The notes below the pieces were generated by a model. That model had not been told where the DNA came from, did no database searches, and saw only the letters and a program-made list of their open reading frames with translations. Below are positions 2,855-58,370 of a stretch of 64,000 bases of DNA, piece after piece. Location: positions 152,454-216,453 of the forward strand of contig CAZAUJ010000001.1 of assembly GCA_964488355.1 (NCBI GenBank), in the 5' to 3' direction. The position numbers and the translations under genes were made by a program. Source of the DNA: an uncultured Thermoanaerobaculia bacterium. GTDB taxonomy: Bacteria > Acidobacteriota > Thermoanaerobaculia > Thermoanaerobaculales > Thermoanaerobaculaceae. Position 1 is the first letter of the stretch; each line of letters starts with the position of its first letter.

Positions 2855-3097
2855 ATGCTAGAAGCACTTGGAATTTTGCTGCTGGTTGTGCCCCTCTGGC
2901 TAATCTTGGCCATGGTGGCCCTGATCCTGCGCGTGCTGCTTTTTCCGCTGAAGATCTTCTTCCTCTTGCTGCAAATCCTTCTGCCCGCCGTCGGGCTGGT
3001 GTTGCTTTTGGCGCTCGGTGTGCCGTTCTTACTGCTTGCCTTGCCCTTGCTGCTGGTTGGCCTGGTCTTCGCCGGCTTGATCAACCTGCTGGGTTAA
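2855..3097 (+). CDS. Small Leu-rich hydrophobic membrane protein (hypothetical, 80 aa)
   Basis: ATG at 2855 lies inside the spurious 1307..3097 ORF. Translation is MLEALGILLLVVPLWLILAMVALILRVLLFPLKIFF...GLINLLG, with 2-3 predicted TM helices. Third-position GC bias looks coding. It overlaps the convergent gene 3029..4318 by 69 nt. Confidence 0.4.
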   Translation: MLEALGILLLVVPLWLILAMVALILRVLLFPLKIFFLLLQILLPAVGLVLLLALGVPFLLLALPLLLVGLVFAGLINLLG

Positions 3098-8440: not shown

Positions 8441-8537
8441 GGTTTCCCCTCGCTTCCATGTTAGTGCCAGGGAAGCTGGTTGGCTAGGGGAAGCAGACGG
8501 GGAAGCTTCCACCTGCTAAACTGAAAGAGAGGCAGGC

Positions 8538-12747: not shown

Positions 12748-12800
12748 TATGCCCTCCGCTGGCAAGTTTACCCGCAGGTGCAGCAGAGGACCAATGGCTA

Positions 12801-16456: not shown

Positions 16457-16608
16457 GGTGACATTGTGCCATTTCGAGCCACCGTCCCTTCAAAGTTGCG
16501 ACCAGGTTTCCGGATGACGAAACCATGGCATTTTGTACACGTAATTTTTACCACAAGCTCTTTACACTTCGCCTTGGGGAACCGATTATGGCCGCAAGAG
16601 GAGGTGGC

Positions 16609-20451: not shown

Positions 20452-20458
20452 GGTGCTC

Positions 20459-22749: not shown

Positions 22750-24182
22750 GCACGGCAAGGGCGACACCTGAATTTTCGCGAGTTCCTTTTGTTACCGAAG
22801 TGGACTTCTCCCTAGTGACGGCCGAGCTCATTGCCAAGTACGACCGCCCGGGCCCCCGGTACACCTCCTACCCCACAGCACCGCAGTTTTCCACCAGCTT
22901 CACCGCCGCCGACTACCGACGCGCCTTGGAGATGGCCTCCCGGCGCCCAACCGAGCCCCTTTCCCTTTACGTTCATATCCCCTTTTGTGAAGCGCGCTGC
23001 ACCTACTGCGGCTGCAACATCGTCATCTCCCCCCACCGCGGACCAGAAGAGGCCTATTTGCATGCGGTGGAGAGAGAACTGGGCCTCTTGGCGGAGGCGC
23101 TGGGCCACCGGCGTACCCTCTCGCAAATGCACTGGGGCGGTGGAACCCCCACCTACCTCACCCCGTCCCAGTGTGCCCGCTTGGCGGAGGCCATTGCTCG
23201 GCACTTCACCTTCACCCCCGATGCGGAGGTGGCCATCGAGGTGGACCCGTGCGTCACCTCCCAGGAGCATCTACGGGTGCTGCGAGGGCTAGGATTCAAC
23301 CGCATTTCCATGGGCCTGCAAGACCTTGACCCGCAAGTGCAACAGGCCGTTCGCCGGATCCAAAGCCTTGAGACCACCAAGGCTTTGGTGGAAAAAGCGC
23401 GGGAGCTGGGCTTCGCTTCGGTCAACGTGGACCTCATGTATGGCCTGCCCTACCAAACGCCGGAATCCTTCGCCAAGACAGCGGAGACAGTGGTTCGGGA
23501 GCTGTCCCCCGATCGGTTGGCGGTTTTCTCCTATGCCCACGTACCTTGGATCAAGCCGCATCAGCGAGCCCTGGAGTCCATGCCCTTGCCGCGGGGTTTC
23601 GCCAAGTTCCAAATCTTCGCCGCTGCAGCCCAGGTTTTCGTGCAAGCCGGTTACCGCTTCATCGGCATGGACCACTTTGCCAAGCCGGAAGACGAGCTGT
23701 CCCGAGCCCTGGAGCGGGGGAGCTTACATCGAAACTTCATGGGCTATACGGTGCTGCCGGCCACCGACCTGGTGGGCGTGGGGGTGACAGCCATTGGCGA
23801 CGTGGCTGGGGCTTACGTGCAAAACGAGAAGAACTTGGCCCGTTACCAAAGAGCCCTGGCAGGCGGGCAATTTCCCGTTGAGAGAGGCATCTGGCGCAGC
23901 GAGGAAGACGAGCTTCGTGGCGCGGTGATTCGCAAGCTCATCTGCACCTTCACCTTGGCCTTTTCCTGGGTGCGGGAGCGGTTCCGTGTGGACCCGCACG
24001 AGTACTTCGCGCAAGAGCTTGCGGAGCTGGCACCCTTCATTGAGGACGGACTGGTGCACCTGGATGACCAGGGCATCACCGTTCTGCCCCAGGGCCGTGT
24101 GTTCATTCGCAACATCTGCATGCCCTTTGACGCCTACCTGCGCCGGGAAACCGGCCGCCCAGTTTACTCGCGAACCGTATGA
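22746..24182 (+). CDS. hemN: Oxygen-independent coproporphyrinogen-III oxidase (radical SAM)
   Basis: ATGA overlap with hemE. HemN-specific N-terminus YDRPGPRYTSYPTAPQF and radical-SAM CEARCTYCGC (Cx3Cx2C). The track ORF 21483.. is over-extended. Confidence 0.93.
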   Translation: MSTARATPEFSRVPFVTEVDFSLVTAELIAKYDRPGPRYTSYPTAPQFSTSFTAADYRRALEMASRRPTEPLSLYVHIPFCEARCTYCGCNIVISPHRGPEEAYLHAVERELGLLAEALGHRRTLSQMHWGGGTPTYLTPSQCARLAEAIARHFTFTPDAEVAIEVDPCVTSQEHLRVLRGLGFNRISMGLQDLDPQVQQAVRRIQSLETTKALVEKARELGFASVNVDLMYGLPYQTPESFAKTAETVVRELSPDRLAVFSYAHVPWIKPHQRALESMPLPRGFAKFQIFAAAAQVFVQAGYRFIGMDHFAKPEDELSRALERGSLHRNFMGYTVLPATDLVGVGVTAIGDVAGAYVQNEKNLARYQRALAGGQFPVERGIWRSEEDELRGAVIRKLICTFTLAFSWVRERFRVDPHEYFAQELAELAPFIEDGLVHLDDQGITVLPQGRVFIRNICMPFDAYLRRETGRPVYSRTV

Positions 24183-25585
24183 CGAACGGCGAACCGTTTG
24201 ATGTGATCGTCGTGGGTGGAGGCATCGCCGGTCTTACCTGTGCGTTTTTCTCCAGACAACAGGGCCTTTCGCTGCTGCTGTTGGAAGAAAGCGAGCGGCC
24301 CGGGGGCAAGATACGCAGCCAATGGGAGGACGGCTTTTGCTGCGAGTGGGGGCCCCAGGGTTTTCTCGACAACGTGCCCGAGACGCTCGAGCTGGTACGG
24401 GCTTTGGGGCTCGAGACTCGCTTGGTGCGGGCCAGTGATCAGGCCGCTGCCCGCTTTATCTTGCGGCAGGGCAGGCTCCGGCGCATTCCCCTATCGCCCC
24501 CCGCCTTCCTGGCTTCCGATGTGCTCTCCTGGCGTGGAAAGCTGCGCCTTCTAGCCGAGCCTTTTATGCCCCGGGGAAAAGGCGAGGACGAATCGGTGCT
24601 GGCCTTTGCCCGTCGGCGCATCGGACGCGAGGCGGCAGAGGTGCTGGTGGACGCCATGGTCACTGGCCTGTACGCCGGCAGGGCGGAGGAGCTTTCCCTG
24701 GCCGCTACATTTCCCAAGATGGCAGCCATGGAGCGCACCTACGGTTCCCTCACCCGTGCTCTTCTTGCCCTGCGCCGAAAGGGCGGGCGGGGCGGACCGG
24801 CAGGGCCTGGTGGCATCCTCACCACCTTCGTGAGCGGCATGCAGGAGCTTCCCGACGCCCTGGCTCGGGCGCTGTCCAGCCAGCTGCGCCTTCAGGCGTC
24901 GGTGCTGCGCCTGCACCGCGAGCCTGATCAGAAGGCCACCTGGGTGGTGGAGCTAGCCTCGGGCGAGCGCCTCCAAACCCGTGCCCTGGTGCTTACGGTC
25001 CCGCCACAGCAGGCCGCCTGCCTGCTGGCGAACCTCTTCCCCCAGCCAGCTCTGGAGGCGCTCCGAGCCATACCTACCCCGCCGGTGGTGGTGGTGATGA
25101 CCGCGTATCGCCGCTCCCAGCCCTTTGCCCACGCGTTGGGTGGCTTTGGATTCTTGGTACCCTCCGGGGAGCCGCGTCGCATCCTCGGAACGCTCTTCTG
25201 CCACTCTATCTTCCCTGGCCAGGCGCCGCCTGGGACGGTCCTCTTGCGCACCATCCTGGGCGGCGCGCGCGCCCCCGAGGTCATCGACTACACCGACGAG
25301 GAGTTGCTGGCGTTGGTGCGGCGAGAGCTTCATGCCGTCTTGGGCGGCGACCCTGATCCGGCGCTGGTGCGCATCTTCCGCCACCCCGAGGGGATACCGC
25401 AATACACCCTAGGCCACCCTCACCGGCTTGCCGCCATCGAAGGCGCAGCAGCTTCCCTGCCTGGTTTGTACCTGACCGGCAACGCCTACCGGGGTGTGGC
25501 GGTGAACGCCTGCATTGCCGAGGCCAAGCGGGTGGCCCACAGCCTGGCCCGGTTTGTAAGGGGCGGACCGCCCACGGATGGCTAG
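24179..25585 (+). CDS. hemY: FAD-dependent protoporphyrinogen (or coproporphyrinogen) oxidase, HemY type
   Basis: ATGA overlap with hemN. Dinucleotide fold VIVVGGGIAGLTCAF, C-terminal GLYLTGNAYRGVAVNACI, 468 aa. Confidence 0.9.
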   Translation: MTNGEPFDVIVVGGGIAGLTCAFFSRQQGLSLLLLEESERPGGKIRSQWEDGFCCEWGPQGFLDNVPETLELVRALGLETRLVRASDQAAARFILRQGRLRRIPLSPPAFLASDVLSWRGKLRLLAEPFMPRGKGEDESVLAFARRRIGREAAEVLVDAMVTGLYAGRAEELSLAATFPKMAAMERTYGSLTRALLALRRKGGRGGPAGPGGILTTFVSGMQELPDALARALSSQLRLQASVLRLHREPDQKATWVVELASGERLQTRALVLTVPPQQAACLLANLFPQPALEALRAIPTPPVVVVMTAYRRSQPFAHALGGFGFLVPSGEPRRILGTLFCHSIFPGQAPPGTVLLRTILGGARAPEVIDYTDEELLALVRRELHAVLGGDPDPALVRIFRHPEGIPQYTLGHPHRLAAIEGAAASLPGLYLTGNAYRGVAVNACIAEAKRVAHSLARFVRGGPPTDG

Positions 25586-26226: not shown

Positions 26227-27369
26227 CTATTTGGGCGGCCCAAAGGAAACCGCCACGTAAAGCGCGAGAACAGGCCAGCGGAAAACGCCGGAAAGCATGG
26301 CCATGCAGGGGAGTAACAGCCCCGGTCCGCCCAACAAGTATGCCAGGGTTGCCCCCGGGCCCATCCCCTTGTGCATCAGGGCCAGGGCTGTGGGGACCTC
26401 CACGTAAGTGCATACGTAGGCCAGCAAAGCCACCGCGCTGGCCACAAGCACGCTGTCGAGGGCTTTCCCACCAACCCATTCCGTAATCAAACTTGTGGGA
26501 ATGAGAACCTTGATCGCCCGGGCAATGAGCACCGCCAGAAGCAGGTAGCCGTTCAGCTGGAGAAAGGGTTTCCAGGCCAGTCGACCCGTCTCCAGTAAGC
26601 GCTGGGTCAGGTTTGCCGGCAAGGCATCGGCCGTGAGGAGGACGGCACAGGCGCCTACGTCACGTAACTCAACGTCGTGCATCGCGGCCAACCGCCGCCT
26701 TCCCTTACCATCTTGCTCGACCAATCCCGCCTCTTCCAAAAGGTGGAGTTTCTCTAACGTGCCCGGTTCCAGCTCCGAAGGTGCAATGGCCTCCGGCTTC
26801 GCTACGGCTTTTAGAACGAACTCGAAGGCAGACTTCTGCAGCTCGGGAGAAAGCCGCGGAGTAACCCGGATCTTGAGAAACTTTCTCAGGCCGCGATCGC
26901 GCGCCTGCCAACGGGTAAGCACCTGGCCCAGGGTACGCGCAATGGCGAATGTAGCTACCACCCTGGCCAAGGCCATGGGCCAGCCCAAGATGCCCGCCGT
27001 CATAAAGACGGTGGGCACGTTGAGCATGGGAGCCGCCACAAGGAAGGCCCTGGTGGGTCCCAGGGGGATGCCGGCCTCCACCATTCCCGCCAGTACAGGC
27101 ACGATGCCACAGGAACAAATGGGTATGACGGCGCCGGCCGCGGCGGCCATGAAGTTGGCGAGAAAGCCACCATAGCCCATTTTCACTTTCACTTTTTCCC
27201 ACGAAACAAAGATTACAAGGGCCGCAGCAATCAGCATGCCGACGACCCAATCCTGGAACAACTCGACCAGCACCGCTGGGGCCTTGATGTAAACGAACCA
27301 CGCAACCTTAGCCAGGTTGCAGGAAAGAGGGGCGGCAATTTCAACCAGCCGAGCCTCGTCCTCAGGCAC
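26227..27369 (-). CDS. Predicted permease of the DUF318/ArsP type (two-half 8-10 TM transporter with CSC motif)
   Basis: 380 aa, GTG start. Family-typical N-terminus APAVLVELFQDWVVGMLIAAALVIF and motif AVIPICSCGIVPVLAGM, with a second-half repeat. A roughly 100-aa soluble central loop separates the halves. Confidence 0.85.
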   Translation of the reverse strand: MPEDEARLVEIAAPLSCNLAKVAWFVYIKAPAVLVELFQDWVVGMLIAAALVIFVSWEKVKVKMGYGGFLANFMAAAAGAVIPICSCGIVPVLAGMVEAGIPLGPTRAFLVAAPMLNVPTVFMTAGILGWPMALARVVATFAIARTLGQVLTRWQARDRGLRKFLKIRVTPRLSPELQKSAFEFVLKAVAKPEAIAPSELEPGTLEKLHLLEEAGLVEQDGKGRRRLAAMHDVELRDVGACAVLLTADALPANLTQRLLETGRLAWKPFLQLNGYLLLAVLIARAIKVLIPTSLITEWVGGKALDSVLVASAVALLAYVCTYVEVPTALALMHKGMGPGATLAYLLGGPGLLLPCMAMLSGVFRWPVLALYVAVSFGPPK

Positions 27370-28043: not shown

Positions 28044-28703
28044 CTAAGAGCCAGCACCGGCGCTTGGCTCCTCTGCCCGCCGCGGGCTCCAGGAATACAC
28101 GCCAGCGGCCACGGCAGCCACGATGGTCTCCGGAGGATGACCCATGGCTGCAAGAAGAGCGTCCTCAAGAGCCTCTGCATCAATCACCACCTTCGCCCGG
28201 CTTATTGCTTCCTCGCTGGCACCGGAAAAGTTGAGCGGACAAGGAGGCAACTCCTCCTCCCCGATGTGGCATGGCAAACCGAAGCTGCGGCAGGAAAGGG
28301 GGCGGAACTGGTAAAGGAGGCAGGAACCGGTATTCGGTTCCAGCAACGGGCACGGAAGATAGGCAAACCGGCGGCAAAAAGCCTCACGCGCCTGGTCCTC
28401 TTCCGCCAAAGCCCCCGTACCCGTAGTGCCAGGAAACTCCTTCTGCAGCAAGGCCCATTGCGCCTGCGCCCGGGCGCGGATGCCCTCGGCCACCTCGGGG
28501 TGCTGGCGTGCCAGCTCCGCCAAACCACGGGCAAGGCGCCAGGCGTCCAACGCCGTGATCTCAAACACACCGATGCAACACGAAGAGCACCCCTGACTAC
28601 ACCTAAGCCAATGCCCGGCCCTTTGGGCACCCTCCTGCCAACTGCGGGCGTAGCTGGCACGCAGCTGGTGATCCCAAGCGATGAGCTGCTCCTCACCGAT
28701 CAT
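28044..28703 (-). CDS. YkgJ-family cysteine-cluster protein (CxxCxxCC, putative Fe-S/Zn-binding)
   Basis: N-terminal cluster CSQGCSSCC, with downstream Cys residues CPLL, CLLY and LSCRSFGLPC. 219 aa. Confidence 0.75.
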   Translation of the reverse strand: MIGEEQLIAWDHQLRASYARSWQEGAQRAGHWLRCSQGCSSCCIGVFEITALDAWRLARGLAELARQHPEVAEGIRARAQAQWALLQKEFPGTTGTGALAEEDQAREAFCRRFAYLPCPLLEPNTGSCLLYQFRPLSCRSFGLPCHIGEEELPPCPLNFSGASEEAISRAKVVIDAEALEDALLAAMGHPPETIVAAVAAGVYSWSPRRAEEPSAGAGS

Positions 28704-31444: not shown

Positions 31445-32176
31445 TCACTTCCGCCCCTCACGCTGAGCCAACCACGTGCCGGCGGCCGGTAAACCCGCCG
31501 CCAGGTTGGTGGCCTGCCAGGACCCTTCGATCCGGCGCTCCTGGCCCCGGACCGCCAGGCGGCCAGTATATACCGCCACGAAACCAAGCTGTGCGTCGAT
31601 GCGCTCCAAGCGCACCGTGTTCCCCACCAGCGTGCCACGCAGGGAGCCGCGCCAGCCCCCGGCGAGCTCATAAACTCCGGAAACCAGGGTGCCAAAGAGG
31701 CGCAGGTCGAACGTCCCGCGCAAACCACCCGGTTCGATCGTCACCTGCCAACGGCCGGAAAGGTCGTCACCACCGGCGGCAAGGGCCTCTTCCAAACGCT
31801 TCACCTCGGCCGCCAGCTGCTCGATCACCGCTCGCCTCGCCGCGACCGTGCTCCGCAGCTGCTGTGCGCCGGCAATAAGAGCGGCCACTTCGGCTTCAGC
31901 GCGGCGCAGGTCGGCGAAGCGCGCATGGAGAGTCGCCACGTCCTCCCCGTCCCGCTGCGAGCGCAGCAAGTCGTCCCCCAGGCGCAGCATGCGGTCGCAC
32001 GCTTGCCGCAAATCTTCCTGGCTGCGCTCCAGCTGACCTAACTCGCTGCCGAGAAGTTTCCTTTCCAGCTCCAGCTGGCTACGAAACACCTCAACCACCA
32101 CAGGATCGGGAGTCTGGGCGGGCGCAGGCAAGCTGGTCAGCAGGCTCAGGCCAAGCAACCACCCCACGTTCTTCAT
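31445..32176 (-). CDS. Hypothetical secreted coiled-coil protein
   Basis: The preferred start MKNVGWLLGLSLLTSLPAPAQ (signal peptide) at 32176 is preceded by AGGGGGA. It has a long heptad-like Q/E/L/R region and a Gly/Arg-rich beta C-terminal domain. Confidence 0.75.
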   Translation of the reverse strand: MKNVGWLLGLSLLTSLPAPAQTPDPVVVEVFRSQLELERKLLGSELGQLERSQEDLRQACDRMLRLGDDLLRSQRDGEDVATLHARFADLRRAEAEVAALIAGAQQLRSTVAARRAVIEQLAAEVKRLEEALAAGGDDLSGRWQVTIEPGGLRGTFDLRLFGTLVSGVYELAGGWRGSLRGTLVGNTVRLERIDAQLGFVAVYTGRLAVRGQERRIEGSWQATNLAAGLPAAGTWLAQREGRK

Positions 32177-32241
32177 AGGTCCCCCTGTCACCATTTCTAC
32201 GCTACCACAGGGGAGCTTCGTTGCTGCTAAAGTTTTCGCCT

Positions 32242-36387: not shown

Positions 36388-37620
36388 ATGCGGAAAGCGT
36401 TTTTGCTCCTGGCAAGCCTTCTTGCTGCCAATAGCCTCACAGCGGCCCAGGCGCCGCCGGTGGAGACCTTGGTCGCAGAGGCACTCAGCGCCAACCCGCG
36501 CGTCCGAGAGCTGGAACTCTTGATCAAGGAGTCGGGAACCCTGGAACAACCGGCTGCTACCCTGCCCGACCCAATGGTGGACGTGATGGTGGCCAACCTG
36601 GGGTTCCCCCGGCCGAAGCTGGGGAGCGAGGTCATGGCCAGTGTTTCCCTGCGCCAAGCTCTTTCTTACCCGGGAAAGCTGCGCCTGCGCCGGCAGCTGG
36701 TGGAAGCGGAAACTTTGGTCCGGCGATCCGAGCTCGAAGCATTGAAAGCATGGCTCACCGTGGAGGTGCGGAAAACCTACGCTCAAGTGTTTGCCATCGA
36801 CAGCGAGCTGGCCACCCTGGCGGAGGCGGAGAAAACGCTGGATGTGCTGCAAGAAACAGCGACTCAGCGCTACCGTGCCGGCATGGCCAGTCAAGAAGCG
36901 GTGGTCAAAGTGGTTTTGCAACGGGCCCGGTTGCAAGAAAGGGAAACAGACCTTTTCCGGCAACGAGTCGAGGCGGTAGCCCAGCTCAATCGGCTCCTTA
37001 ACCGACCTTTGGACACGCCTCTTGGACGCGTGACGCAAATCCCGGAGGAGCTGGTGTTGCCTTCAGACTGGCCGTTGCAGGCTCTCCAACACGCGCCGGC
37101 CCTGGCGGTGGCGCACGCGGCGGTAGCGGCGGCGGGAAGCGCCGTGGCGGTGGCGGAGCGGGACCTCAAACCCAACCTGTTCGCCAGCACAAGCGTCGCC
37201 ACCGGCGGCGTTCGGGGTGGGGAGGCGACCTTGGGTGTGGGATTGGAATGGCCCTTCTGGAAAAAAACCAAGCAGCTACCCCTGTTGACGGCCACCCGCC
37301 TTCGCCTGGAAGCCACACGCGCCCGCCGGGATGAGGTGGCGGCGGAGATCCGAGAAGCCGTGGAAAAAACCCAAGCCGCTTGGCAAACCGCAGAAGAGCA
37401 GCTTCGCCGATACCGCGAGGAGCTGCTCCCTTTTAGCCGGGCAGCACTTGAAGCGGCACGGGCCGCTTTTCTCACAGGCCAGGGTGATTTTTCCACCGTC
37501 ATCGAGGATTTCAACCTTTGGCTCGCGGCGCAGGTAGGCTTGGCCCAGCGCCAAGCCCAGCGCTTCATCGCCTGGGCGGAAGCTCAGGCCATGTTGGCCC
37601 AACCGGGAGGTGACCTGTGA
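36388..37620 (+). CDS. cusC: TolC-family outer-membrane efflux factor (CusC-like by context)
   Basis: Signal peptide MRKAFLLLASLLAANSLTA and two OEP-type coiled-coil repeats. Strong GGGAGG Shine-Dalgarno. It is the first gene of the OMF-MFP-RND set. Confidence 0.85.
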   Translation: MRKAFLLLASLLAANSLTAAQAPPVETLVAEALSANPRVRELELLIKESGTLEQPAATLPDPMVDVMVANLGFPRPKLGSEVMASVSLRQALSYPGKLRLRRQLVEAETLVRRSELEALKAWLTVEVRKTYAQVFAIDSELATLAEAEKTLDVLQETATQRYRAGMASQEAVVKVVLQRARLQERETDLFRQRVEAVAQLNRLLNRPLDTPLGRVTQIPEELVLPSDWPLQALQHAPALAVAHAAVAAAGSAVAVAERDLKPNLFASTSVATGGVRGGEATLGVGLEWPFWKKTKQLPLLTATRLRLEATRARRDEVAAEIREAVEKTQAAWQTAEEQLRRYREELLPFSRAALEAARAAFLTGQGDFSTVIEDFNLWLAAQVGLAQRQAQRFIAWAEAQAMLAQPGGDL

Positions 37621-39002
37621 AACACCTTGCCCGAATCGTCGTTGCGCTCGTTATCGCAGCGCTGGTTGTGCTGGTGCCGGTCGCATGCAAGAATGGCCGC
37701 ACCGGACAGCAGCTTTACCATTGCCCCATGCATCCAACCTACACCTCGGACAAACCGGGCGATTGCCCCATTTGCGGCATGCGCCTGGTACCGGTGGAAA
37801 AGACCACCCCTACCCCAGCGTCGGTGGCGAAAACCACGGGGAAGAAAATCCTCTTTTACCGCAACCCCATGGACCCGAGCGTGACCTCGCCAGTGCCGAT
37901 GAAGGACAGCATGGGCATGGATTACGTTCCCGTTTATGAGGAGGAGCCTTCCTCTTCTTCTTCTGTTGCCGGGTACGCGCCCGTGATGCTGGAGCCGGCT
38001 GGCATTTCCCGGTCGGGGATCCAGACGGTCGAGGCCCGGCGGGGCCAGCTGGGAGAAGCCGTACGGGCGGTGGGAACCGTTGTGCCCGACGAGCGCCGCG
38101 TAACCCAGGTTTTCGCCAAGGTTTCCGGCTGGGTGGAGCAGCTGTTCGTCACCTTCACAGGGCAATGGGTGGAAAAAGGGCAGCCTCTGTTGAGCATGTA
38201 CTCGCCCGAGCTGTTGGCCAGCCAAGAGGAGTACCTGCGCTCGCTCCAGCTGGTGAAGGAGCTGGCCCAGGCTTCGCCCTCCGCCCAACAGGCGGCGCGG
38301 CAACTGCAGCAGGCAGCTCGCCAGCGCTTGCTCCTGTTCGACGTTCCAGAATCGTTCATTGCTCACCTTGAAGATGCGGGACAGCCCTCGCGTACGGTCA
38401 CGCTTACGGCCCCTCACCCGGGCTACGTGCTCGCTAAGGAAACCTTCGCTGGGCGACGAATCGAACCCGGTACGGAACTGTACCGCCTGGCCGACCTGCG
38501 CAGGGTCTGGGTGCTGGCGGATTTTTACGAGCAGGAGGCTTCGTGGCTTTCTCTCAACATGCCCGCTCGTGTCACACTGCCCTACCAGCCAGGAGAAGCC
38601 CTCGATGGGGTCATCAGCTACATCTACCCTACCGTGGAGCCGGAAAGCCGCACGGTGCGGGTGCGGGTGGAGCTGGCCAACCGCGAAGGGCGGTTAAAAC
38701 CGGACATGTACGCCCACGTGGAGGTGGAGCTCCGCACGACCGAAGGGCTGGTAGTCCCCGATTCGGCAGTCATGGATACCGGTACGAGAAACATCGTGTT
38801 CGTCGAGGAAAAGCCAGGGTTTTTCGTTCCCCGGGAGGTCACGGTGCTCCACCGAAGCGGCGGGAAGGCGTTGGTGAGTAAGGGGCTGGCCGAAGGCGAA
38901 CGGGTGGTGGTGAAGGGTACCTTCCTGCTGGATTCCGAATCGCGCTTACGAGCCGCCTTGGCAGCTCCGAAAGGAGGGGACCGTGGTCCAGCGCATCATT
39001 AA
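37617..39002 (+). CDS. cusB: RND efflux periplasmic adaptor (CusB-like) with N-terminal CPMHP/CPICGM heavy-metal-binding module
   Basis: GTGA overlap with the OMF gene. YHCPMHPTYTSDKPGDCPICGMRLVP precedes the HlyD/MFP barrel-sandwich and beta-barrel regions (VSGWVEQLFV..GQWVEKGQPLL). Confidence 0.88.
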   Translation: MKHLARIVVALVIAALVVLVPVACKNGRTGQQLYHCPMHPTYTSDKPGDCPICGMRLVPVEKTTPTPASVAKTTGKKILFYRNPMDPSVTSPVPMKDSMGMDYVPVYEEEPSSSSSVAGYAPVMLEPAGISRSGIQTVEARRGQLGEAVRAVGTVVPDERRVTQVFAKVSGWVEQLFVTFTGQWVEKGQPLLSMYSPELLASQEEYLRSLQLVKELAQASPSAQQAARQLQQAARQRLLLFDVPESFIAHLEDAGQPSRTVTLTAPHPGYVLAKETFAGRRIEPGTELYRLADLRRVWVLADFYEQEASWLSLNMPARVTLPYQPGEALDGVISYIYPTVEPESRTVRVRVELANREGRLKPDMYAHVEVELRTTEGLVVPDSAVMDTGTRNIVFVEEKPGFFVPREVTVLHRSGGKALVSKGLAEGERVVVKGTFLLDSESRLRAALAAPKGGDRGPAHH

Positions 39003-42000
39003 GTTCTCGGCGGAAAACCGGGTCCTTGTATTGCTGGGCGCGGCCGCCCTGTGCCTCTTCGCCTGGCAATCCCTTCAGCGTATCCGTTTGGACGCCCTCC
39101 CGGACCTTTCCGATACCCAGGTCATCGTGTTTTCCCGCTGGGACCGCTCGCCGGATATCATCGAGGACCAGGTCACCTACCCGATCATCACCGCCCTATT
39201 GGGGGCGCCCAAGGTCAAGGCCATACGCGGCTTTTCTGATTTCGGCTTTTCCTACGTGTACGTCATCTTCCAAGACGGCACCGATCTCTACTGGGCGCGC
39301 TCCCGGGTTTTGGAGTACCTTTCCAAAATCCAACCGCAGCTGCCGCCTGGTGTGCGTACCGAGCTGGGCCCCGATGCCACCGGAGTGGGCTGGGTATTTC
39401 AGTACGCCCTGGTGGACACCTTAGGCACGCACAGCTTGGAGGAACTGCGCACCTTTCAGGACTGGACCCTGCGCTACGCCCTGCAAGCTGTACCGGGGGT
39501 CGCGGAGGTGGCCTCCATTGGCGGCTTCGTCAAGCAATACCAAATCACGGTGGACCCCAACCGCTTAGCTGCCTTCGGGTTGTCCTTGGCTGAGGTGGCC
39601 GAGGCGGTGCGCAGGAGCAACAACGAGGTGGGTGGCCGGCTGCTCGAGTTTGCCGGAACCGAGTTCATGGTGCGGGGGCGAGGCTACGCCCGAAGCCTGC
39701 CCGACTTTGAAAACATCGTGCTTAAGACCACCGCCCAAGGCGTACCCGTGCGCGTTCGGGATGTGGCTCGGGTAGCGACCGGTCCCGAGATCCGCCGGGG
39801 TGTGGCAGACCTGGACGGGGTTGGGGACCACGTGGGTGGCATCGTGGTCATGCGCCACGGGGAGAATGCCCTCAACGTAATCAAGCGGGTCAAGGCCAAG
39901 CTGGCGGAGTTGGAACCCTCCCTGCCCGAAGGCGTGAAAATCGTGACCACCTACGACCGCAGTGATCTCATCCAGCGCGCCATCGACACCCTGCGCCATG
40001 AGCTGACTATTGAGATGATGATCGTCGCTTTGGTCATCCTGATCTTTCTCTGGCATATCCCCTCAGCGCTAGTTCCCATTTTGACCATCCCTATATCCGT
40101 GCTCTTGGCCTTCATTCCCCTTTACTGGATGGGCGTGACGGTCAACATCATGTCCCTGGCTGGCATCGCCATTTCCATCGGGGTTCTCGTGGACGGCGCC
40201 ATCGTGGAGGTGGAAAACGCCTACAACAAGATCCATCGCTGGCTGGAAGAGGGGCGTCCGGGCGACTTCCACCAGGTTCGCCTGCAGGCGTTGCAGGAGG
40301 TGGGGCCCGCAGTTTTCTTTTCGCTGCTCGTCATTGCCGTGTCCTTCATTCCCATTTTTGCCTTGGTGGAGCAGGAGGGGCGCCTTTTTAAGCCCTTGGC
40401 CTACTCCAAGAATTTGGCCATGGCCCTCGCCTCCCTCCTGGCCATTACCCTCGATCCGGCCCTACGTATGCTTTTCGCCCGCATCGATCCCTTCCTATTT
40501 CGCCCTCGCCGGCTGGCCAGCCTAGCGACTCGTGTTTTCGTCGGCACCTACTACGCGGAGGAAAAACACCCCGTAAGCCGCGTGCTGCTTCGCCTGTACG
40601 AACCCGTGTGCCGCTTCGTTCTGCGTTTTCCCAAAAGCGTGGTCCTGGCTTCGCTGGCGTTGGTGGCGGCAAGCCTTCCTGTTTACTTTCATTTGGGCAG
40701 GGAATTCATGCCGCCCTTGGCCGAGGGCAGCATCCTCTACATGCCCACCACCCTCCCCGGCATTTCGGTGACCGAGGCCCAGCGGCTGTTGAAGGAACAG
40801 GACCGGATTCTCAAGAGCTTCCCTGAGGTGGAGCGCGTGTTCGGCAAGGCCGGTCGGGCCGAGACCTCCACCGACCCAGCGCCTTTTTCCATGATGGAAA
40901 CCACCGTCATCTTGAAACCGGAAAGCCAGTGGCGAAAAAAGCCTCGCTGGTACACCTCCTGGGCCCCTGCCTGGCTCGCCTCACTCTTGCGACCTTTCTG
41001 GCCAGACCATATAAGCTACGAGGAGCTCATTGACGAGATGGACCGCGCCATGCGCTTTGCCGGGGTGACCAATGCCTGGACCATGCCCATCAAAGCGCGC
41101 ATCGACATGCTTTCCACCGGCGTCCGCACGCCCATTGGCATCAAGATCTTCGGCGCGGACCTGAAAGAAATCGAGCGCGTCGGCACCGAGCTCGAAACTC
41201 TGCTGCGCCAAATTCCCGGAACCCGCTCGGTCTACGCCGAGCGAGTCACCGGCGGGTACTTTGTGGATTTTGTGCCCGACCGAGAGCTTCTCGCCCGCTA
41301 CGGCCTGACCATCGAGGACCTGCACATGGTCATCATGTCGGCCATCGGCGGTGAAAACATCACTACCACCATCGAGGGACGTGAGCGCTATCCGGTGAAC
41401 CTCCGTTACCCCCGGGAGCTACGCGACGACTTAGAACGGTTGAGGCGGGTGCTGGTAGCCACCCCCTCAGGTGCGCAGATACCTATCGGCCAGCTGGCCA
41501 AAATTGAGCTAGTCCAGGGGCCAGCAATGATCCGTGACGAAAACGGCTTCCTGGCCGGCTACGTGTACGTGGACATTGCCGGTCGAGATGTGGGCAGCTA
41601 CGTGGAGGAAGCAAAGGCTCGTGTTAGCCAAAACCTGCAGCTGCAGCCAGGGTACGTGCTGCAATGGTCCGGGCAGTACGAAAACATGCTGCGGGTAAAG
41701 GAAAGGCTCAAGCTGGTGGTGCCGGTGACCCTAACCCTCATCTTCGTGCTGCTGTACGCCAACACCCGCTCCGCATTTAAGGCAGGCCTGGTGATGCTGG
41801 CGGTGCCCTTCTCCGCTGTGGGTGCCATTTGGCTTTTCTATCTTTTAGACTACAACGTGTCGATTGCCGCTTGGGTGGGCATGATTGCCCTTTTGGGCTT
41901 GGATGCGGAAACCGGCGTGTTCATGCTGCTTTTCCTGGACCTCTCGTGGCAAGAATTTAAGGAAAAAGGGTTATTGGTGGATGCGCGCGCGCGCGACGAG

Positions 42001-42237
42001 GCCATCGTCCACGGCGCAGTAAAGCGCTTGCGGCCCAAGCTCATGACCGTGGTGGCGGCCTTCTCTGGCCTTTTGCCCATCATGTGGTCTACCTCCGCGG
42101 GAGCTGACGTGATGAAGCGCATTGCCGCGCCCATGATTGGCGGCCTGGTTACCTCCTTTGTCTTGGAGCTGTTGGTTTATCCGGCCATCTACAAGCTTTG
42201 GAAGCTGCGCACTGAGCTGCGGCCGGCAAACCCATGA
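38983..42237 (+). CDS. cusA: Heavy-metal efflux RND transporter (CusA/CzcA family)
   Basis: 1084 aa. The N-terminus MVQRIIKFSAENRVLVLL is typical of the CusA/HME-RND family, with 12 TM segments and two large periplasmic loops. Cu/Ag specificity is inferred from the neighbours. Confidence 0.9.
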   Translation: MVQRIIKFSAENRVLVLLGAAALCLFAWQSLQRIRLDALPDLSDTQVIVFSRWDRSPDIIEDQVTYPIITALLGAPKVKAIRGFSDFGFSYVYVIFQDGTDLYWARSRVLEYLSKIQPQLPPGVRTELGPDATGVGWVFQYALVDTLGTHSLEELRTFQDWTLRYALQAVPGVAEVASIGGFVKQYQITVDPNRLAAFGLSLAEVAEAVRRSNNEVGGRLLEFAGTEFMVRGRGYARSLPDFENIVLKTTAQGVPVRVRDVARVATGPEIRRGVADLDGVGDHVGGIVVMRHGENALNVIKRVKAKLAELEPSLPEGVKIVTTYDRSDLIQRAIDTLRHELTIEMMIVALVILIFLWHIPSALVPILTIPISVLLAFIPLYWMGVTVNIMSLAGIAISIGVLVDGAIVEVENAYNKIHRWLEEGRPGDFHQVRLQALQEVGPAVFFSLLVIAVSFIPIFALVEQEGRLFKPLAYSKNLAMALASLLAITLDPALRMLFARIDPFLFRPRRLASLATRVFVGTYYAEEKHPVSRVLLRLYEPVCRFVLRFPKSVVLASLALVAASLPVYFHLGREFMPPLAEGSILYMPTTLPGISVTEAQRLLKEQDRILKSFPEVERVFGKAGRAETSTDPAPFSMMETTVILKPESQWRKKPRWYTSWAPAWLASLLRPFWPDHISYEELIDEMDRAMRFAGVTNAWTMPIKARIDMLSTGVRTPIGIKIFGADLKEIERVGTELETLLRQIPGTRSVYAERVTGGYFVDFVPDRELLARYGLTIEDLHMVIMSAIGGENITTTIEGRERYPVNLRYPRELRDDLERLRRVLVATPSGAQIPIGQLAKIELVQGPAMIRDENGFLAGYVYVDIAGRDVGSYVEEAKARVSQNLQLQPGYVLQWSGQYENMLRVKERLKLVVPVTLTLIFVLLYANTRSAFKAGLVMLAVPFSAVGAIWLFYLLDYNVSIAAWVGMIALLGLDAETGVFMLLFLDLSWQEFKEKGLLVDARARDEAIVHGAVKRLRPKLMTVVAAFSGLLPIMWSTSAGADVMKRIAAPMIGGLVTSFVLELLVYPAIYKLWKLRTELRPANP

Positions 42238-42288
42238 GCGCCACCTCGCTTGGGTGCCATCCTTCTTGCAACGGAAGGGAGACGGACG

Positions 42289-44646
42289 ATGAAACCCCAT
42301 ACGCACCAGCATCAGGGTGAGGGCCCACAGGCGCGTGACCCGGTCTGCGGCATGGCCGTTACCGCGGGGCCGGCAACGCCTCGGATCAGCTTCAAGGGCC
42401 AAACCTACTACTTTTGTTGCCACCACTGCCGGGAGAAATTTAAAGCCCAGCCGGAGGCCTACCTGCGCCCGACGCCGGCGGCAGCTATACGCTTGCCGTC
42501 CTTGGCCAAAGAGCCGCCGCCAGCCCCTGAGGTCGCCAGCACCTACACCTGCCCCATGCACCCGGAAGTGCAGCAAGACCACCCCGGAACCTGTCCCCTT
42601 TGCGGCATGGCTTTGGAACCGCTCCAGCCCAGCCTCTCGGAGGAGGAGAACCCCGAGCTGCTCCATATGCGTCGGCGGTTCTGGTGTGCCGCTTTGCTTT
42701 CCGCCCCGGTGGTGCTTCTGACCATGCTGGAAGGCACGTCAGCACTAGCCGGCCTGTCGCCCGCTCTACTGCACTGGCTGCAGCTGCCCTTGGCCGCCCT
42801 GGTGGTGTTTTGGGCCGGGTGGCCACTTCTGCACCGTGCCTGGCAGTCGGTGGTCCACAGGAACGCCAACATGTTCACCCTCATCGGCATGGGAGTCATT
42901 GCCGCCTTCGGCTTCAGCCTGCTGGCGACCGTTGCTCCTGGAATTTTTCCCGCCTCCTTCAGAGGCGCGGAGGGCCAGGTAGGGGTTTATTTCGAGGCCG
43001 CGGCGGTGATTACCGCGTTGGTGCTTTTGGGCCAGATGCTGGAGCTTGCGGCCCGAAGCCGCACCTCCGCCGCTATCAAGGCGCTGTTGCGCTTGGCGCC
43101 AAAAACCGCGCGGCGGGTAAATCCCGACGCAACGGAGGAGGACGTACCGCTAGCACACGTGCGGGTGGGCGACCGTCTGCGCGTGCGTCCCGGGGAAAAA
43201 ATCCCAGCCGACGGCGTGGTGGTGGAAGGGGCCAGCAGCGTGGACGAATCCATGCTCACCGGCGAGCCCATACCGGTGGAGAAAAAGCCGGGAGATCCGG
43301 TGGTCGGCGCCACCCTCAACGGCACTGGAACCCTGATCATCGAAGCCAAAAAGGTGGGCAGCGACACGCTCTTGGCGCAAATTGTGCGCCTGGTGAGCGA
43401 AGCACAACGAAGCCGTGCTCCCATCCAGCGCGCCGCGGATCGTCTCGCGGCGGTGTTTGTGCCGGCGGTGCTGGTGGTGGCGGCGGTAACGTTCTTGGTG
43501 TGGGCTTTCTGGGGCCCGCCACCGGCCCTCACCCATGCGTTGATTAATGCGGTGGCGGTGCTGATCATTGCCTGCCCCTGCGCTTTGGGCTTGGCCACGC
43601 CCATGTCTATCATGGTGGCTTCGGGTCTGGGAGCCACCAAGGGGGTGCTGTTCCGTCACGCCGAGGCCATTGAAACCATGGGCAAGGTGGACACCTTGGT
43701 TTTGGACAAGACCGGCACCCTCACCGAGGGCAAGCCCCGCCTGGAGCGCGTGGAAACGGCTCACGGCTTCCCGTCGGAGGAACTTCTGCGCCTGGCCGCC
43801 AGCCTGGAAGCGGCAAGCGAGCACCCCTTGGCTACCGCCATCCTCAGCGCTGCGCGTGAACAAGGGCTGGGCCTGTTGCCCTGCGAAGATTTCCAGGCCT
43901 TCCCCGGTAAGGGGTTGCGCGGCCGGGTGGCGGACCGCACGGTGGAGCTGGGCAACGCCGCCTATTTCCAGGAGCGCGGCCTGGCTCTCGATGCTTTGCG
44001 AGGAATGGCGGAGACCATACACGCGGAAGGCCAGACGGTGGTTTTCGTCGCGGTGGATGGTCAGCTGGCCGGCCTGCTGAGCGTGGCCGATCCGGTTAAG
44101 CCCAACGCCGCCGAAGCCATCCGGCAACTCAAGGGGCTTGGTGTGCGGGTAGTCATGCTCACCGGCGACAACCGGGTCACCGCCGAAGCCGTGGGCAAAC
44201 GGCTCGGCATTGAGGAGGTCATCGCCCAGGTCTTGCCTGAGCAGAAGGCCGAGCTGGTGGGACGCTTGCAGCAGCAGGGGCGTCTGGTGGCCATGGCGGG
44301 GGACGGGATCAATGACGCGCCGGCTCTGGCGCGTGCCCACGTGGGCATCGCCATGGGCAGCGGCACAGACGTGGCCATGGAATCGGCATCGGTGACGCTG
44401 GTGAAGGGCGACCTTATGGGTCTGGTGCGCGCTCGTCTCCTCTCCCAGGCTACCCTTCGCAACATCAAGCAAAACCTGTTTTGGGCCTTTGCCTACAACC
44501 TGCTGGGCGTACCCATTGCCGCCGGCGTCCTTTACCCCTTTTTCGGCGTGTTGCTCTCGCCCGTACTTGCCGCCGCCGCCATGAGCTTCTCGTCGCTGAC
44601 GGTGGTGGGCAACGCGTTGCGCCTCTACCGGCTCAAGTGGCCTTGA
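42289..44646 (+). CDS. copA: Copper-translocating P1B-type ATPase with TRASH/YHS-like and CPMHP-type N-terminal metal-binding modules
   Basis: ATG 42289 is preceded by GGAAGGGAG. Motifs are TGEP, the CPC transmembrane motif ([12 protein letters not shown]), [15 protein letters not shown] and the SEHPLA P1B signature HP. N-terminus: DPVCGMAV...[12 protein letters not shown] and [22 protein letters not shown]. Confidence 0.93.
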
Positions 44647-55973: not shown

Positions 55974-56855
55974 CTACCCCTCCCGGTCGCCCCAGTGAAG
56001 CTTGTTGTGCAGAATGGCAAAAAAGCTCAAGCCCGGAGGCCGCACCACCGTTAAGGGTTCCCCCTCGGGCAAGACGCGCACCACGTGCTGATGGTTCAAG
56101 GGATGGCCGTACTGCCCGTCCAGGGTGAGGAAGGCATCCTCGTCGCCTGGGTGAACCCGCACGGTGACGGCGGATGCCAGCGGCACCACCAGGGGTCGGT
56201 TGGAAAGGGTGTGCGGACAGATGGGGGTGATGATTAAGGCGGGCAAGGCCGGGTAAACGATGGGGCCGCCAGCAGAAAGGTTATACGCAGTGGAGCCGGT
56301 GGGCGTGGCCAGGATGAGGCCATCGGCCCGATAGTGCGAGAGGAGCTCACCGTCGATTTCCACGCGAATGGTCAAGATCCTAGCCAATGCCCCCTTGGAA
56401 ATGACCACGTCGTTGAGCACCAAGAACTCCTCCCGGCCTGCCTCGTGATCCAGCTGGCAGCGGAGCCGGGCGCGTTGCTCGCATTGAAACTGACCTGAAA
56501 GAAGCGCCTCCACCAGCGTCCCAAGCTGATCCACCGAGTGCTCGGTGAGGAAACCCAACGTGCCCATGTTCACGCCAGCCACCGGCGTGGAGGCGGGACA
56601 ACCACGGGTCACCGAGAGAAACGTGCCGTCCCCGCCCAAAACCAGCACCGCGTCCACCTCCCGACCCAGCTCGGCACGCGGTGGACCGGCCGGCACGTTC
56701 AAGGCCACGGCGCTTTGCTGGTCTACCACCACGTCCACCGCCCGTGCCAGAAGGCGCGTGCGGACCTCAAGTCCCAATGCCAGAGCTTCTGGGCTGGAGG
56801 TTTTGACCACCAGCCCCAGTTTTCTCACCGGCCTGGGAAGGTGCGGCGCAGTCAC
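55974..56855 (-). CDS. nadK: NAD(+) kinase
   Basis: GGDGTFL, NDVVISKG and TPTGSTAYNLSAGGPIV motifs. GTG start. Confidence 0.93.
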   Translation of the reverse strand: MTAPHLPRPVRKLGLVVKTSSPEALALGLEVRTRLLARAVDVVVDQQSAVALNVPAGPPRAELGREVDAVLVLGGDGTFLSVTRGCPASTPVAGVNMGTLGFLTEHSVDQLGTLVEALLSGQFQCEQRARLRCQLDHEAGREEFLVLNDVVISKGALARILTIRVEIDGELLSHYRADGLILATPTGSTAYNLSAGGPIVYPALPALIITPICPHTLSNRPLVVPLASAVTVRVHPGDEDAFLTLDGQYGHPLNHQHVVRVLPEGEPLTVVRPPGLSFFAILHNKLHWGDREG

Positions 56856-56927
56856 CAGACAATTCTAACTGGGGCACGCCCCCTAAGTTTCGCGCCCCTT
56901 ACCTTTAGAGCTGGGCTGCGCGTGGTC

Positions 56928-57146
56928 TTAAACGCCCAACTGCTGAAGAATTTCCTCCGTTTCCGGAAACCGGCCCTCATGATGCTTGGAAAAGACCCGC
57001 CGACCATCCACCTCCACGTCGAACACCCCCCCAGAACCCTTGACCAGCTCCACCTCCGCACCCAAGCGCTCCTGTAGCTCAGCTGCCAACCTGGCAGCTC
57101 GTGGGTAGTAGTTTCAAACCACACAGTAGGTAATTCGCACCTTCAT
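56928..57146 (-). CDS. selW: SelW-like Rdx-family selenoprotein; in-frame TGA (57116-57114) read as selenocysteine in a CxxU motif
   Basis: My translation is MKVRITYCVV-U-NYYPRAARLAAELQERLGAEVELVKGSGGVFDVEVDGRRVFSKHHEGRFPETEEILQQLGV*. It matches the Rdx pattern (I.YC..U/C....RA..L..EL ... GSGGVFEV.VDG..I.S....GRFPE..E). GAGGGAGAAG Shine-Dalgarno lies upstream of the ATG. A SECIS-like hairpin lies 14 nt after the TGA. It is not in the ORF track because the TGA splits it. Confidence 0.85.
57081..57099 (-). promoter_or_regulatory. Candidate bacterial SECIS hairpin inside the selW-like CDS
   Basis: The minus-strand RNA AGCUGCCA-GGU-UGGCAGCU forms a perfect 8-bp stem. Alternatively it forms a 7-bp stem with apical loop AGGUU. 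It starts 14 nt 3' of the UGA. Confidence 0.7.
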
Positions 57147-57164
57147 AGTCTTCTCCCTCGGCCG

Positions 57165-58370
57165 CTAGTGTAGCTTGCTGCGGTAGAGAAACGCGAACCA
57201 AGCCGCGCCGGCCAAGCAGACGGCCCCGCCGAAAAAGAGGGCTGTCGTCGTGCCCAGCTTCTGCGCCAGAAAGCCTGCCCAAAGGCCACCTAGGGGAGTC
57301 CCCCCGGAAAAAACCCAAATGTAGAGGGAAATAAGGCGGGCCCGCAGCTCCGCCGGCGAGCGCGTCTGCACGGTTCCGTTGGTGGTGGCCAGCTGAGACG
57401 CTACCGCCCATCCGGCAACCACCAGGCTAAGGCACGCGGCCCAAAGGAAGCGCGTCCAGGCTAAGCTCATAAGGCTGAGGCCGAGAAGGCAAAGGGCAAG
57501 GAAGACCCGCCGTCCACTGCCCCGCTCGTCTCGCCTCGCCGCCACCCACAGCGAGCCCACCATGGCCCCCAAGCCCGAGGCAGCCAGCAACAACCCGTAA
57601 CCACGCGCATCAGCGCCCAGGCGGGTTTTGGCCAAGGCGGGCAAAAGGGTACTGTAGGCCAGGCCAAAGGTGGCCGTGAGAAACACCGCTACCAGCAGGC
57701 GGCGAATTCGGCGGTCATTCCAAGCAAAGCGCACACCTTCTATCAACTGGGGCCACAGGGCGAATGGCGCCCGGGGAACGCTCGTTTGGCCCCTGACGGA
57801 AAGCACGGCGAAAAGAAAGGGAAAGAAACTGAGCGCGTTGATGAGAAAACACCACCCCTCGCCGTAGCGCGCCACCAGAACCCCGGCAATGGCCGGCCCT
57901 ACCAAACGGCCGCCATTGAACACCGCCGAATTAAGGGAAATGGCGCTTTGCAGGTCGGCGACCGGCACCAGCTCCACCTGAAAGCTCTGCCGGGCGGGCA
58001 TGTCTAGCGTGTCCACGAAACCCTGCACCAGCGCCAAAAGCAGCACATGCGCCAACAGCACGTTCCCCGAAAGGGTGAGCCAGGCCAGCAGAGTAGCCTG
58101 GAGAATGCTTACCGATTGGGTCAAGGCCAAGAGCCGGCGGCGGGAAACGTAGTCGGTCAGCACGCCGGCAAAAGGCAAGGCCACCAGCGTAGGCCCAAAA
58201 CGCAGGGCCGTGAGCAGGCCCAGGGCTTGCGCGGAGTTGGTGAGTCGGTAAACCAGCCAACCCTGCGCCACCGTTTGCATCCAGCTGCCCAACACCGAGA
58301 CAGCCCAGCCGGCCCAGTAACGGCGGAAGGCCGGGTAACGCAGGGCGCGAAACGCATGGGGCAAGGCCAT
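57165..58370 (-). CDS. MFS transporter (EntS/MFS_3-like)
   Basis: 401 aa with 12 predicted TM helices. N-terminus FRALRYPAFRRYWAGWAVSVLGSWMQTVAQGWLVY is typical of this MFS subfamily. Confidence 0.88.
   Translation of the reverse strand: MALPHAFRALRYPAFRRYWAGWAVSVLGSWMQTVAQGWLVYRLTNSAQALGLLTALRFGPTLVALPFAGVLTDYVSRRRLLALTQSVSILQATLLAWLTLSGNVLLAHVLLLALVQGFVDTLDMPARQSFQVELVPVADLQSAISLNSAVFNGGRLVGPAIAGVLVARYGEGWCFLINALSFFPFLFAVLSVRGQTSVPRAPFALWPQLIEGVRFAWNDRRIRRLLVAVFLTATFGLAYSTLLPALAKTRLGADARGYGLLLAASGLGAMVGSLWVAARRDERGSGRRVFLALCLLGLSLMSLAWTRFLWAACLSLVVAGWAVASQLATTNGTVQTRSPAELRARLISLYIWVFSGGTPLGGLWAGFLAQKLGTTTALFFGGAVCLAGAAWFAFLYRSKLH

Follow-up and report, generated by a model that had tools for sequence, protein, structure and literature searches.

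The 64,000-nt stretch analysed here (the window; contig CAZAUJ010000001.1, from an uncultured Thermoanaerobaculia bacterium) very probably carries, at 57146-56928 on its minus strand, a genuine SelW-like CxxU selenoprotein gene in which an in-frame UGA is recoded as selenocysteine (Sec) by way of a selenocysteine insertion sequence (SECIS) hairpin. An earlier note, made from the letters alone, had proposed such a gene, reading an ATG at 57146, ten codons (MKVRITYCVV) up to the TGA, 61 further sense codons in frame and a TAA at 56930-56928. Each of these elements was confirmed exactly, as was the Shine-Dalgarno sequence that the note had placed just upstream of the ATG (GAGGGAGAAG at 57159-57150). 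The core of the latter, GGGAG, occupies 57157-57153, 6 nt ahead of the ATG, and the junction reads GAGGGAGAAG-ACT-ATG. Read through the UGA, the frame translates into the 72 residues MKVRITYCVVUNYYPRAARLAAELQERLGAEVELVKGSGGVFDVEVDGRRVFSKHHEGRFPETEEILQQLGV. The elements of the gene are the following:

56928-57146, minus strand: coding sequence of the predicted SelW-like (Rdx family) selenoprotein, 72 codons, Sec11 among them, followed by the TAA.
57150-57159, minus strand: Shine-Dalgarno-like GAGGGAGAAG, read directly, with a 3-nt gap to the ATG.
57144-57146, minus strand: start codon ATG; a start codon stands at the same place in 82 of 88 distinct homologs.
57123-57125, minus strand: Cys8 codon TGT, the putative resolving Cys of the CxxU redox motif; Cys in 88 of 88.
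57114-57116, minus strand: in-frame UGA, predicted Sec11; TGA in 95 of 95 loci.
57081-57099, minus strand: candidate SECIS hairpin, an 8-bp stem of AGCUGCCA and UGGCAGCU around the loop GGU at 57091-57089.
56928-56930, minus strand: stop codon TAA, read directly and from the translation.

Profile searches, for which the minus-strand reading frame was tested with U written as C, assign the product to the Rdx/SelW family, as the earlier note had claimed. Pfam Rdx (PF10262) matched with 78.2 bits against a cutoff of 22.6 (E = 5.6e-22; residues 2-70 on profile positions 1-72 of 74), the NCBIfam model NF041051, 'SelT/SelW/SelH family (seleno)protein', with 98.6 bits against an equivalog cutoff of 88, and TIGR02174 with 65.1 bits against a cutoff of 34.2. 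The Pfam and NCBIfam models align through the TGA, beginning at residue 2 or 3. Matches in the PDB extend over the whole length (E from 2e-9 to 5e-7) and comprise the Cys-containing bacterial Rdx structures 2fa8, 2ojl, 2oka, 3dex, 2obk and 2p0g as well as human MIEN1, the CxxC of which aligns to the CxxU of the window protein. The redox motif of the latter reads YC8-V-V-U11-NY, with Cys8 opposite the first and the UGA opposite the second Cys of CxxC (2fa8, 2ojl). The fold was assessed by proxy, on an AlphaFold model of P0003, a full-length Cys homolog with 62% identity to the window protein. In this model (predicted local distance difference test score 88.5), secondary structure follows the order β1, CxxC, α1, β2-4, α2, and the C9..C12 motif lies between β1 (residues 3-9) and α1 (residues 15-29). 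The model superimposes on 2fa8, 2obk and 3dex with template-modelling scores of 0.83-0.87 and a root-mean-square deviation of about 0.9 Å; mouse SelW (2npb), MIEN1 and thioredoxins are the next matches. By way of the Cys homolog, a thioredoxin-like β-α-β-β-β-α fold is thus predicted for the window protein.

We compared the gene with 95 homologous loci, 15 of them metagenomic and 80 genome loci from GTDB representatives; 88 distinct sequences served for the region upstream of the TGA, and 87 distinct sequences, of 49-86% amino-acid identity, for the hairpin. TGA stands at the aligned codon in all 95 loci (Acidobacteriota, Planctomycetota, Burkholderiales, Myxococcota and other phyla), preceded by the consensus M-K-(V/I)-x-I-(T/K/E)-Y-C-x-x. 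The nearest relatives are Thermoanaerobaculum metagenome-assembled genomes (MAGs), in which the SelW-like protein is 83-86% identical to that of the window, at only about 70% nucleotide identity over a collinear block of 10-17 kb; the organism is therefore an acidobacterium of the Thermoanaerobaculia type that belongs to none of those species. In 82 of the 88 sequences, a start codon (ATG in 67, GTG in 14, TTG in 1) precedes the TGA at a distance of exactly 10 codons, and codons -14 to -12, counted from the TGA, hold a conserved purine-rich Shine-Dalgarno patch; further upstream the sequences are unconserved, at about 1.9 bits per column. Over the ten pre-TGA codons, the 88 sequences show third-position periodicity and invariant Tyr and Cys, the Cys8 codon varying at its third position only, and seven close relatives differ from the window by 31 synonymous but only 3 non-synonymous codon changes. 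Because of this start at -10, the periodicity, the invariant Tyr and Cys and the synonymous excess, the ten upstream codons are judged, from comparative sequence data, to be translated into the UGA in this frame. Downstream of the TGA, alignment A1 contains 21 invariant columns, and no frameshift or extra stop was found in any copy among the homologous loci. The earlier note had named ortholog alignment, and a search for homologs with TGC or TGT, as ways of checking the gene: frame and amino-acid sequence proved to be conserved on both sides of the TGA, and one close homolog, P0003 (L096:124-375, from a farmland soil contig), has TGC (Cys) at the aligned codon. It is the sole Cys-form close relative found. 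Neither of the refuting outcomes that the earlier note had named for the family search and for the relatives was thus observed.

The gene lies in the 309-nt gap between an MFS transporter gene (stop at 57165) and nadK (start at 56855). Its location there had been given correctly by the earlier note, the length, put at 290 nt, had not; likewise, the statement that only Trp/Arg-rich open reading frames (ORFs) occupy the gap holds for one of the two listed frames, the other being a piece of the real gene. These two are the sole other ORFs in the gap on the minus strand:

56852-57124, minus strand: Trp/Arg-rich frame of 90 amino acids in the MFS-nadK gap, from the program-made ORF list.
56928-57089, minus strand: spurious ORF of 53 amino acids with a TTG start, a truncation of the real gene, from the ORF list.

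Were the TGA an ordinary stop, the real gene would be this 53-residue ORF from TTG 57089, devoid of the redox motif, and the codons upstream would be untranslated or meaningless. TGA is indeed a frequent stop in this genome, the commonest in the window, where it closes 22 of 44 long ORFs, and 18 of 19 database homologs have been called as fragments of 40-69 amino acids that begin after the TGA position. However, the starts of these truncated forms vary (L, M or V, at different positions) and lack a Shine-Dalgarno sequence; the window TTG itself sits within the SECIS hairpin, formed by loop base U57089 and the first two bases of the 3' arm. An ordinary stop is equally at odds with the coding signature of the ten upstream codons and with family models that align across the TGA, and, as judged from the fold model, the truncated product would lose β1 and the active site. 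We regard this explanation as highly improbable. A second possibility is a pseudogene, that is, a Cys-form Rdx gene killed by a TGY-to-TGA nonsense mutation. Such a change takes a single base, from TGT or TGC, and the Cys form P0003 exists among close homologs. Yet the TGA recurs in every one of the 95 loci across several phyla, the orthologs are no copies of one sequence (87 distinct, at the identities given above), their 61 downstream codons are under purifying selection with neither frameshift nor further stop, and a dedicated, covarying hairpin follows the TGA. The comparative data effectively refute the pseudogene reading, to which we attach next to no probability.

Two further searches concerned TGA in the window at large. 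Reassignment of TGA genome-wide (genetic code 4 or 25) was rejected, as TGA terminates 22 of the 44 long window ORFs. Among other TGA read-through genes sought in the window, four candidates emerged, and all are antisense shadows of real genes.

The hairpin had been described in the earlier note as a fold with a GGU loop, starting 14 nt past the UGA, at 57099-57081, and this description was borne out: AGCUGCCA-GGU-UGGCAGCU folds with a minimum free energy (MFE) of -13.3 kcal/mol, at a UGA-to-loop spacing of 22 nt, and lies within codons 16-22 (R-A-A-R-L-A-A). For bacterial SECIS elements (bSECIS), the published consensus calls for a loop of 3-9 nt beginning with G[G/U], an (upper) stem of 4-16 bp, a distance of 16-37 nt between UGA and loop, and an MFE of -7.5 kcal/mol or lower (PMC13188914). 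The window hairpin agrees in every respect, with 3 nt, GGU, 8 bp, 22 nt and -13.3 kcal/mol. When all 1,211 TGA trinucleotides of the two strands were screened for a perfect downstream stem of 7 bp or more with a G[G/U] loop, at a distance of 16-37 nt, only 2 qualified. One is the UGA of the selenoprotein gene. The other is the TGA at 27343 (minus strand), with a perfect 7-bp hairpin, GCAACCU-GGCUA-AGGUUGC, 27 nt downstream; it falls within the 5' end of ORF 26227-27369 (ArsP_1 permease) but in a different frame, and its hairpin is probably due to chance.

In the homologs, the hairpin was analysed in an ungapped alignment that runs from the UGA to +51 nt and contains the 87 distinct sequences. 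All 87 share the same register, with columns 18-25 paired to columns 29-36 and the loop in columns 26-28. Standard pairs make up 91.7% of cells; with the partner shifted by 1-3 columns, the share is 18-55%. Both sides of a pair have changed in 35 cells, where 6.1 were expected and none of 500 shuffles came as high. Further pair types number 18 against 10.6 expected, and RNAalifold independently yields the same helix. All 87 sequences open the loop with G, and the next base is U in 78 and G in 9. The SECIS interpretation put forward in the earlier note is thus upheld by covariation in 87 sequences and by agreement with the bSECIS consensus.

A hairpin at this place might also arise as a mere by-product of the peptide Ala-Ala-x-Leu-Ala-Ala, the GCN codons of which are self-complementary, and would then have no role in recoding. 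Pairs 19-35, 20-34, 22-32 and 23-31 are indeed largely fixed by Ala codons, and the stability of the single sequence is unremarkable. By contrast, both partners of pair 21-33 are wobble bases of Ala codons, on which the protein places no constraint; the composition of this pair is CG68/UA7/GC4/GU3/AU1/UG1, and pairing is seen in 72 of 75 sequences, where about 52 would be expected (shuffling P at most 5e-5). Pair 22-32 persists where two residues have been replaced together, from Ala/Ala to Thr/Val (A-U) or to Ser/Lys (U-A). Moreover, the loop and closing pair exclusively use rare codons:

Loop Ser codon: AGU in 31 of 31, against 22 of 312 elsewhere in the same genes.
Loop Gly codon: GGU in 44 of 44, against 78 of 623 elsewhere in the same genes.
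Stem Ala codon: GCC in 63 of 64, against 110 of 295 elsewhere in the same genes.
Stem Leu codon: NUG in 81 of 81, against 211 of 371 elsewhere in the same genes.

By these counts, codon choice at the loop and closing pairs is dictated by the RNA. Cys-form homologs point in the same direction, in that they have either another peptide or the same peptide with non-pairing codons. Those in the PDB read RAGWMAQE or RAAWMAQE where the window reads RAARLAAE, and because they carry a different segment there, the palindromic AAxLAA peptide looks like an imprint of the SECIS. In P0003, a single case, the peptide is nearly the same (AARLAE), but only 4 of 8 pairs remain, with the loop Arg codon CGU instead of AGG and G at the Ala wobble position. 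Decay of the hairpin in P0003 is the direction expected once a Sec-to-Cys switch relaxes the SECIS constraint, again as a single example. An origin of the hairpin from the peptide alone accordingly has, in our estimate, only a marginal chance of being correct.

Several points weigh against a SECIS-directed selenoprotein. On its own, the hairpin is no stabler than shuffled sequences (z = -0.8; 40 of 200 fold equally well, in DNA of 64% GC), and four of its eight stem pairs are partly set by the Ala codons (GCN), so that part of the pairing would follow from the peptide AAxLAA alone. The P values for codon usage ignore relatedness among the sequences, the effect itself being nearly absolute. The Rfam SECIS models gave no match, either over the whole window at gathering thresholds or over 56850-57250 at E up to 10, where nothing but noise came up; for short bacterial SECIS elements such a non-match is uninformative. 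The structural model is that of a 62%-identical Cys homolog and not of the window protein. As to the Sec machinery, ARAGORN found no tRNA of any kind in the 64-kb window, nor was there an Rfam match, and tblastn with the E. coli proteins SelD, SelA and SelB as queries found nothing, even at E = 1, in the window or in 1.37 Mb of loci, a weak negative because the queries are approximate.

Further scans for the machinery gave the same picture. SelA, SelB and SelD domains were absent from the 53 long window ORFs in Pfam and NCBIfam scans, and no tRNA-Sec was among the 104 tRNAs that ARAGORN detected in the window and the 95 loci. The statement of the earlier note that the window has no selA, selB, selD or tRNA-Sec gene is consistent with these scans. 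One may hence consider that the UGA is recoded to a residue other than Sec (Cys, Trp or Gly, by near-cognate decoding or by SelB-mediated Cys-tRNA(Sec)), or that the machinery has been lost and inefficient read-through is left. No Sec machinery was observed for this genome in the window scans, and Cys forms exist, so Cys would be chemically workable at position 11. Against such recoding stand the stop-codon usage, which excludes reassignment genome-wide, and the downstream element with SelB-binding SECIS features, namely an invariant loop G followed by G or U. The window hairpin is also intact, as opposed to the 4 of 8 pairs in the Cys form. Surveys count Sec machinery and selenoprotein genes as one trait, and sister lineages show loss or Cys-for-Sec replacement (PMC1794560, PMC5029168). 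Other Acidobacteria, including Chloracidobacterium, Koribacter and Solibacter, are SelD+/SelA+/SelB+ (PMC5029168, Table S1); for selenium use in Thermoanaerobaculum or Thermoanaerobaculia, we found no literature report, and the genus does not occur in the tables of the 2016 survey (PMC5029168). All told, insertion of a residue other than Sec is in our view very unlikely, and the conserved UGA together with the SECIS strongly suggests that this organism decodes Sec. We infer the step that involves SelB and tRNA-Sec, since the machinery genes were not seen in the window or the related loci.

Taken together, the data suggest the following course of expression for the selenoprotein gene. Translation would begin at ATG 57146; at the UGA (57116-57114), the downstream mRNA would fold into the 8-bp hairpin with the GGU loop (57099-57081). 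By analogy with established bacterial Sec insertion, SelB with GTP and Sec-tRNA(Sec) would bind the upper stem and its apical GGU loop with the UGA positioned in the A site, so that Sec is delivered in place of termination and translation would proceed to the TAA at 56928. The product is most likely a small thiol/selenol oxidoreductase that would cycle a Cys8-Sec11 selenenylsulfide at the β1/α1 junction. For the SelW-like family, the CxxU motif has been taken to suggest a redox function (PMC1088965).

Gene callers are prone to misread this locus. An ORF of 179 amino acids on the plus strand (window 56538-57077) is an antisense shadow that overlaps the selenoprotein gene and the start of nadK. 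Equivalent antisense ORFs are present in 26 related loci and formed the largest cluster in neighbour clustering, because the sense gene is conserved in GC-rich DNA; the shadow ORF is a trap for gene callers where the UGA breaks the true gene. The earlier note had expected automatic annotation to miss the gene. Generic callers do truncate it, as seen in 18 of 19 homologs, but NCBI holds a dedicated (seleno)protein model for the SelW-like family (NF041051). A search of the window for a paralog of the SelW-like gene gave none. Elsewhere, the Acidobacteria MAG WY1.bin89 has two distinct Sec-form copies (loci L031 and L048, on contigs JAKAFI010000082 and JAKAFI010000086), which differ, for example, in AAGLAAEL versus AAGLVAEL; some genomes thus appear to carry paralogous SelW-like selenoproteins.

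The gene order around the selenoprotein gene is rmuC - MFS_3 - selW-like - nadK - tamB - bamA, the bamA frame being open from 52299 to 49516. The immediate neighbours and the features of the selW-nadK spacer are these:

57165-58370, minus strand: MFS_3/MFS_1 transporter gene, the upstream neighbour (Pfam MFS_3, 208 bits).
55974-56855, minus strand: nadK (NAD kinase), the downstream neighbour (Pfam NAD_kinase and NAD_kinase_C).
56898-56891 and 56878-56871, minus strand: GC-rich stem-loop in the selW-nadK spacer, GGGGCGCG / CGUGCCCC, with no T-run after it.
56869-56863, minus strand: TTAGAAT box in the selW-nadK spacer, following the stem-loop.

The MFS stop is separated from the selenoprotein ATG by 18 nt, and the selenoprotein stop from the nadK start by 72 nt. 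Given the 18-nt gap and the absence of a terminator-like site between the two genes, the MFS gene and the selW-like gene are probably co-transcribed. On the other side, nadK may have its own promoter, as suggested by the spacer stem-loop and TTAGAAT box, by a TA(C/G)AAT box shortly before nadK in four orthologous spacers (L001, L007, L011 and L015) and by a canonical terminator directly after the selenoprotein gene in one ortholog (L001). nadK lies downstream on the same strand in 21 loci; the gene order is shared by loci from Thermoanaerobaculia and other Acidobacteriota and is not kept in other phyla. Neighbour clustering for a cross-phylum functional partner revealed only Acidobacteriota-specific synteny and no universal partner. 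That the MFS_3 - SelW-like - NAD kinase arrangement of Thermoanaerobaculia and other Acidobacteriota reflects a functional module, rather than mere synteny, is doubtful in our judgement. If it did, the selenoprotein might be, for instance, a redox partner tied to NADP(H) supply, or might alternatively be tied to the passage of a thiol or selenium compound through the MFS protein, out of or into the cell, and the arrangement would offer a first physiological handle on bacterial SelW-like function.

In comparison with known systems, the in-ORF stem-loop immediately 3' of the UGA in E. coli fdhF and fdnG is the prototype of a SelB-binding SECIS. The window element shares with it the position inside the ORF, the G followed by G or U at the start of the loop and the spacing of 16-37 nt; it differs in its simple, perfect 8-bp stem, which lacks a bulged U, and in its 3-nt loop. 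In sequence the two are not similar, as is usual for bSECIS of different families (PMC13188914). The Cys-form Rdx structures (2fa8, which is Atu0228, 2ojl, 2oka, 3dex, 2obk and 2p0g) have the motif position and, as judged from the Cys-homolog model, the fold in common with the window protein; they are CxxC proteins of about 100 amino acids that need no SECIS, whereas the window protein would be a CxxU protein of 72 residues. Mammalian SelW (2npb) and MIEN1 (2ljk) show the same Rdx fold and the same position of CxxU or CxxC. In eukaryotic SelW, the SECIS resides in the 3' untranslated region, has a different architecture and is bound by SBP2 (PMC1088965, Fig. 7 legend); the window SECIS, by contrast, lies inside the coding region, 14 nt past the UGA. 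Among bacterial SelW-like proteins, the window gene is no different in kind and is alike in family, CxxU motif, small size, in-frame UGA and a G-loop SECIS just downstream; its host is of the Thermoanaerobaculia type, a lineage that the selenoprotein surveys consulted do not include, and the MFS - selW - nadK - tamB - bamA order is lineage-specific. Among the selenoprotein families of the Sargasso Sea data, the SelW-like one ranked first in abundance, with 48 genes (PMC1088965), and a 2022 review lists 'Selenoprotein W-like protein, pfam10262, CxxU' in a table (PMC9312934). A 2006 bacterial survey suggested Sec as the ancestral form of SelW-like proteins (PMC1794560), and the 95 of 95 TGA forms found here fit that suggestion.

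Some features elsewhere in the window may be recorded as well. A haem-biosynthesis cluster at about 16525-25585 encodes GlutR (hemA), porphobilinogen deaminase, ALAD, a HemN-like radical SAM protein and a protoporphyrinogen-oxidase-like flavoprotein. In ORF 18871-20451 (plus strand), the ALAD domain spans only residues 204-521 of 526, and in ORF 21483-24182 (plus strand), Radical_SAM and HemN_C together span only residues 496-874 of 899; both ORFs have a lower GC content at third codon positions (GC3), 0.66-0.67, and may have over-extended starts or unrecognised N-terminal parts. A heavy-metal efflux cluster at 36388-44646 (plus strand) comprises an OEP outer-membrane factor, an HlyD/CusB-like adaptor with a heavy-metal-binding domain, an AcrB/CusA-type RND pump and a P-type ATPase with YHS and HMBD domains. 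Six minus-strand ORFs of 219-557 amino acids (3029-4318, 5852-6928, 7727-8512, 12798-14471, 28044-28703 and 31445-32194) had no Pfam or NCBIfam match. Owing to its atypically low GC3 of 0.60, ORF 12798-14471 may not be a real gene in that frame.

No new mechanism or family is involved, as catalogues have listed SelW-like CxxU selenoproteins, along with their SECIS elements, from 2004-2005 onwards. For this genome, the annotation is corrected by a real 72-residue protein of predicted redox function that ordinary gene callers would otherwise miss or truncate. The gene implies Sec decoding in this Thermoanaerobaculia-type acidobacterium, a lineage for which we found no report of it in the literature. 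The set of 87 sequences provides a quantitative example of how an in-ORF SECIS constrains the choice of codons, and even of amino acids, after the UGA. With the AAxLAA peptide and the coupled A/A to T/V or S/K replacements, the clade would be an unusually clean case of a SECIS dictating the protein.

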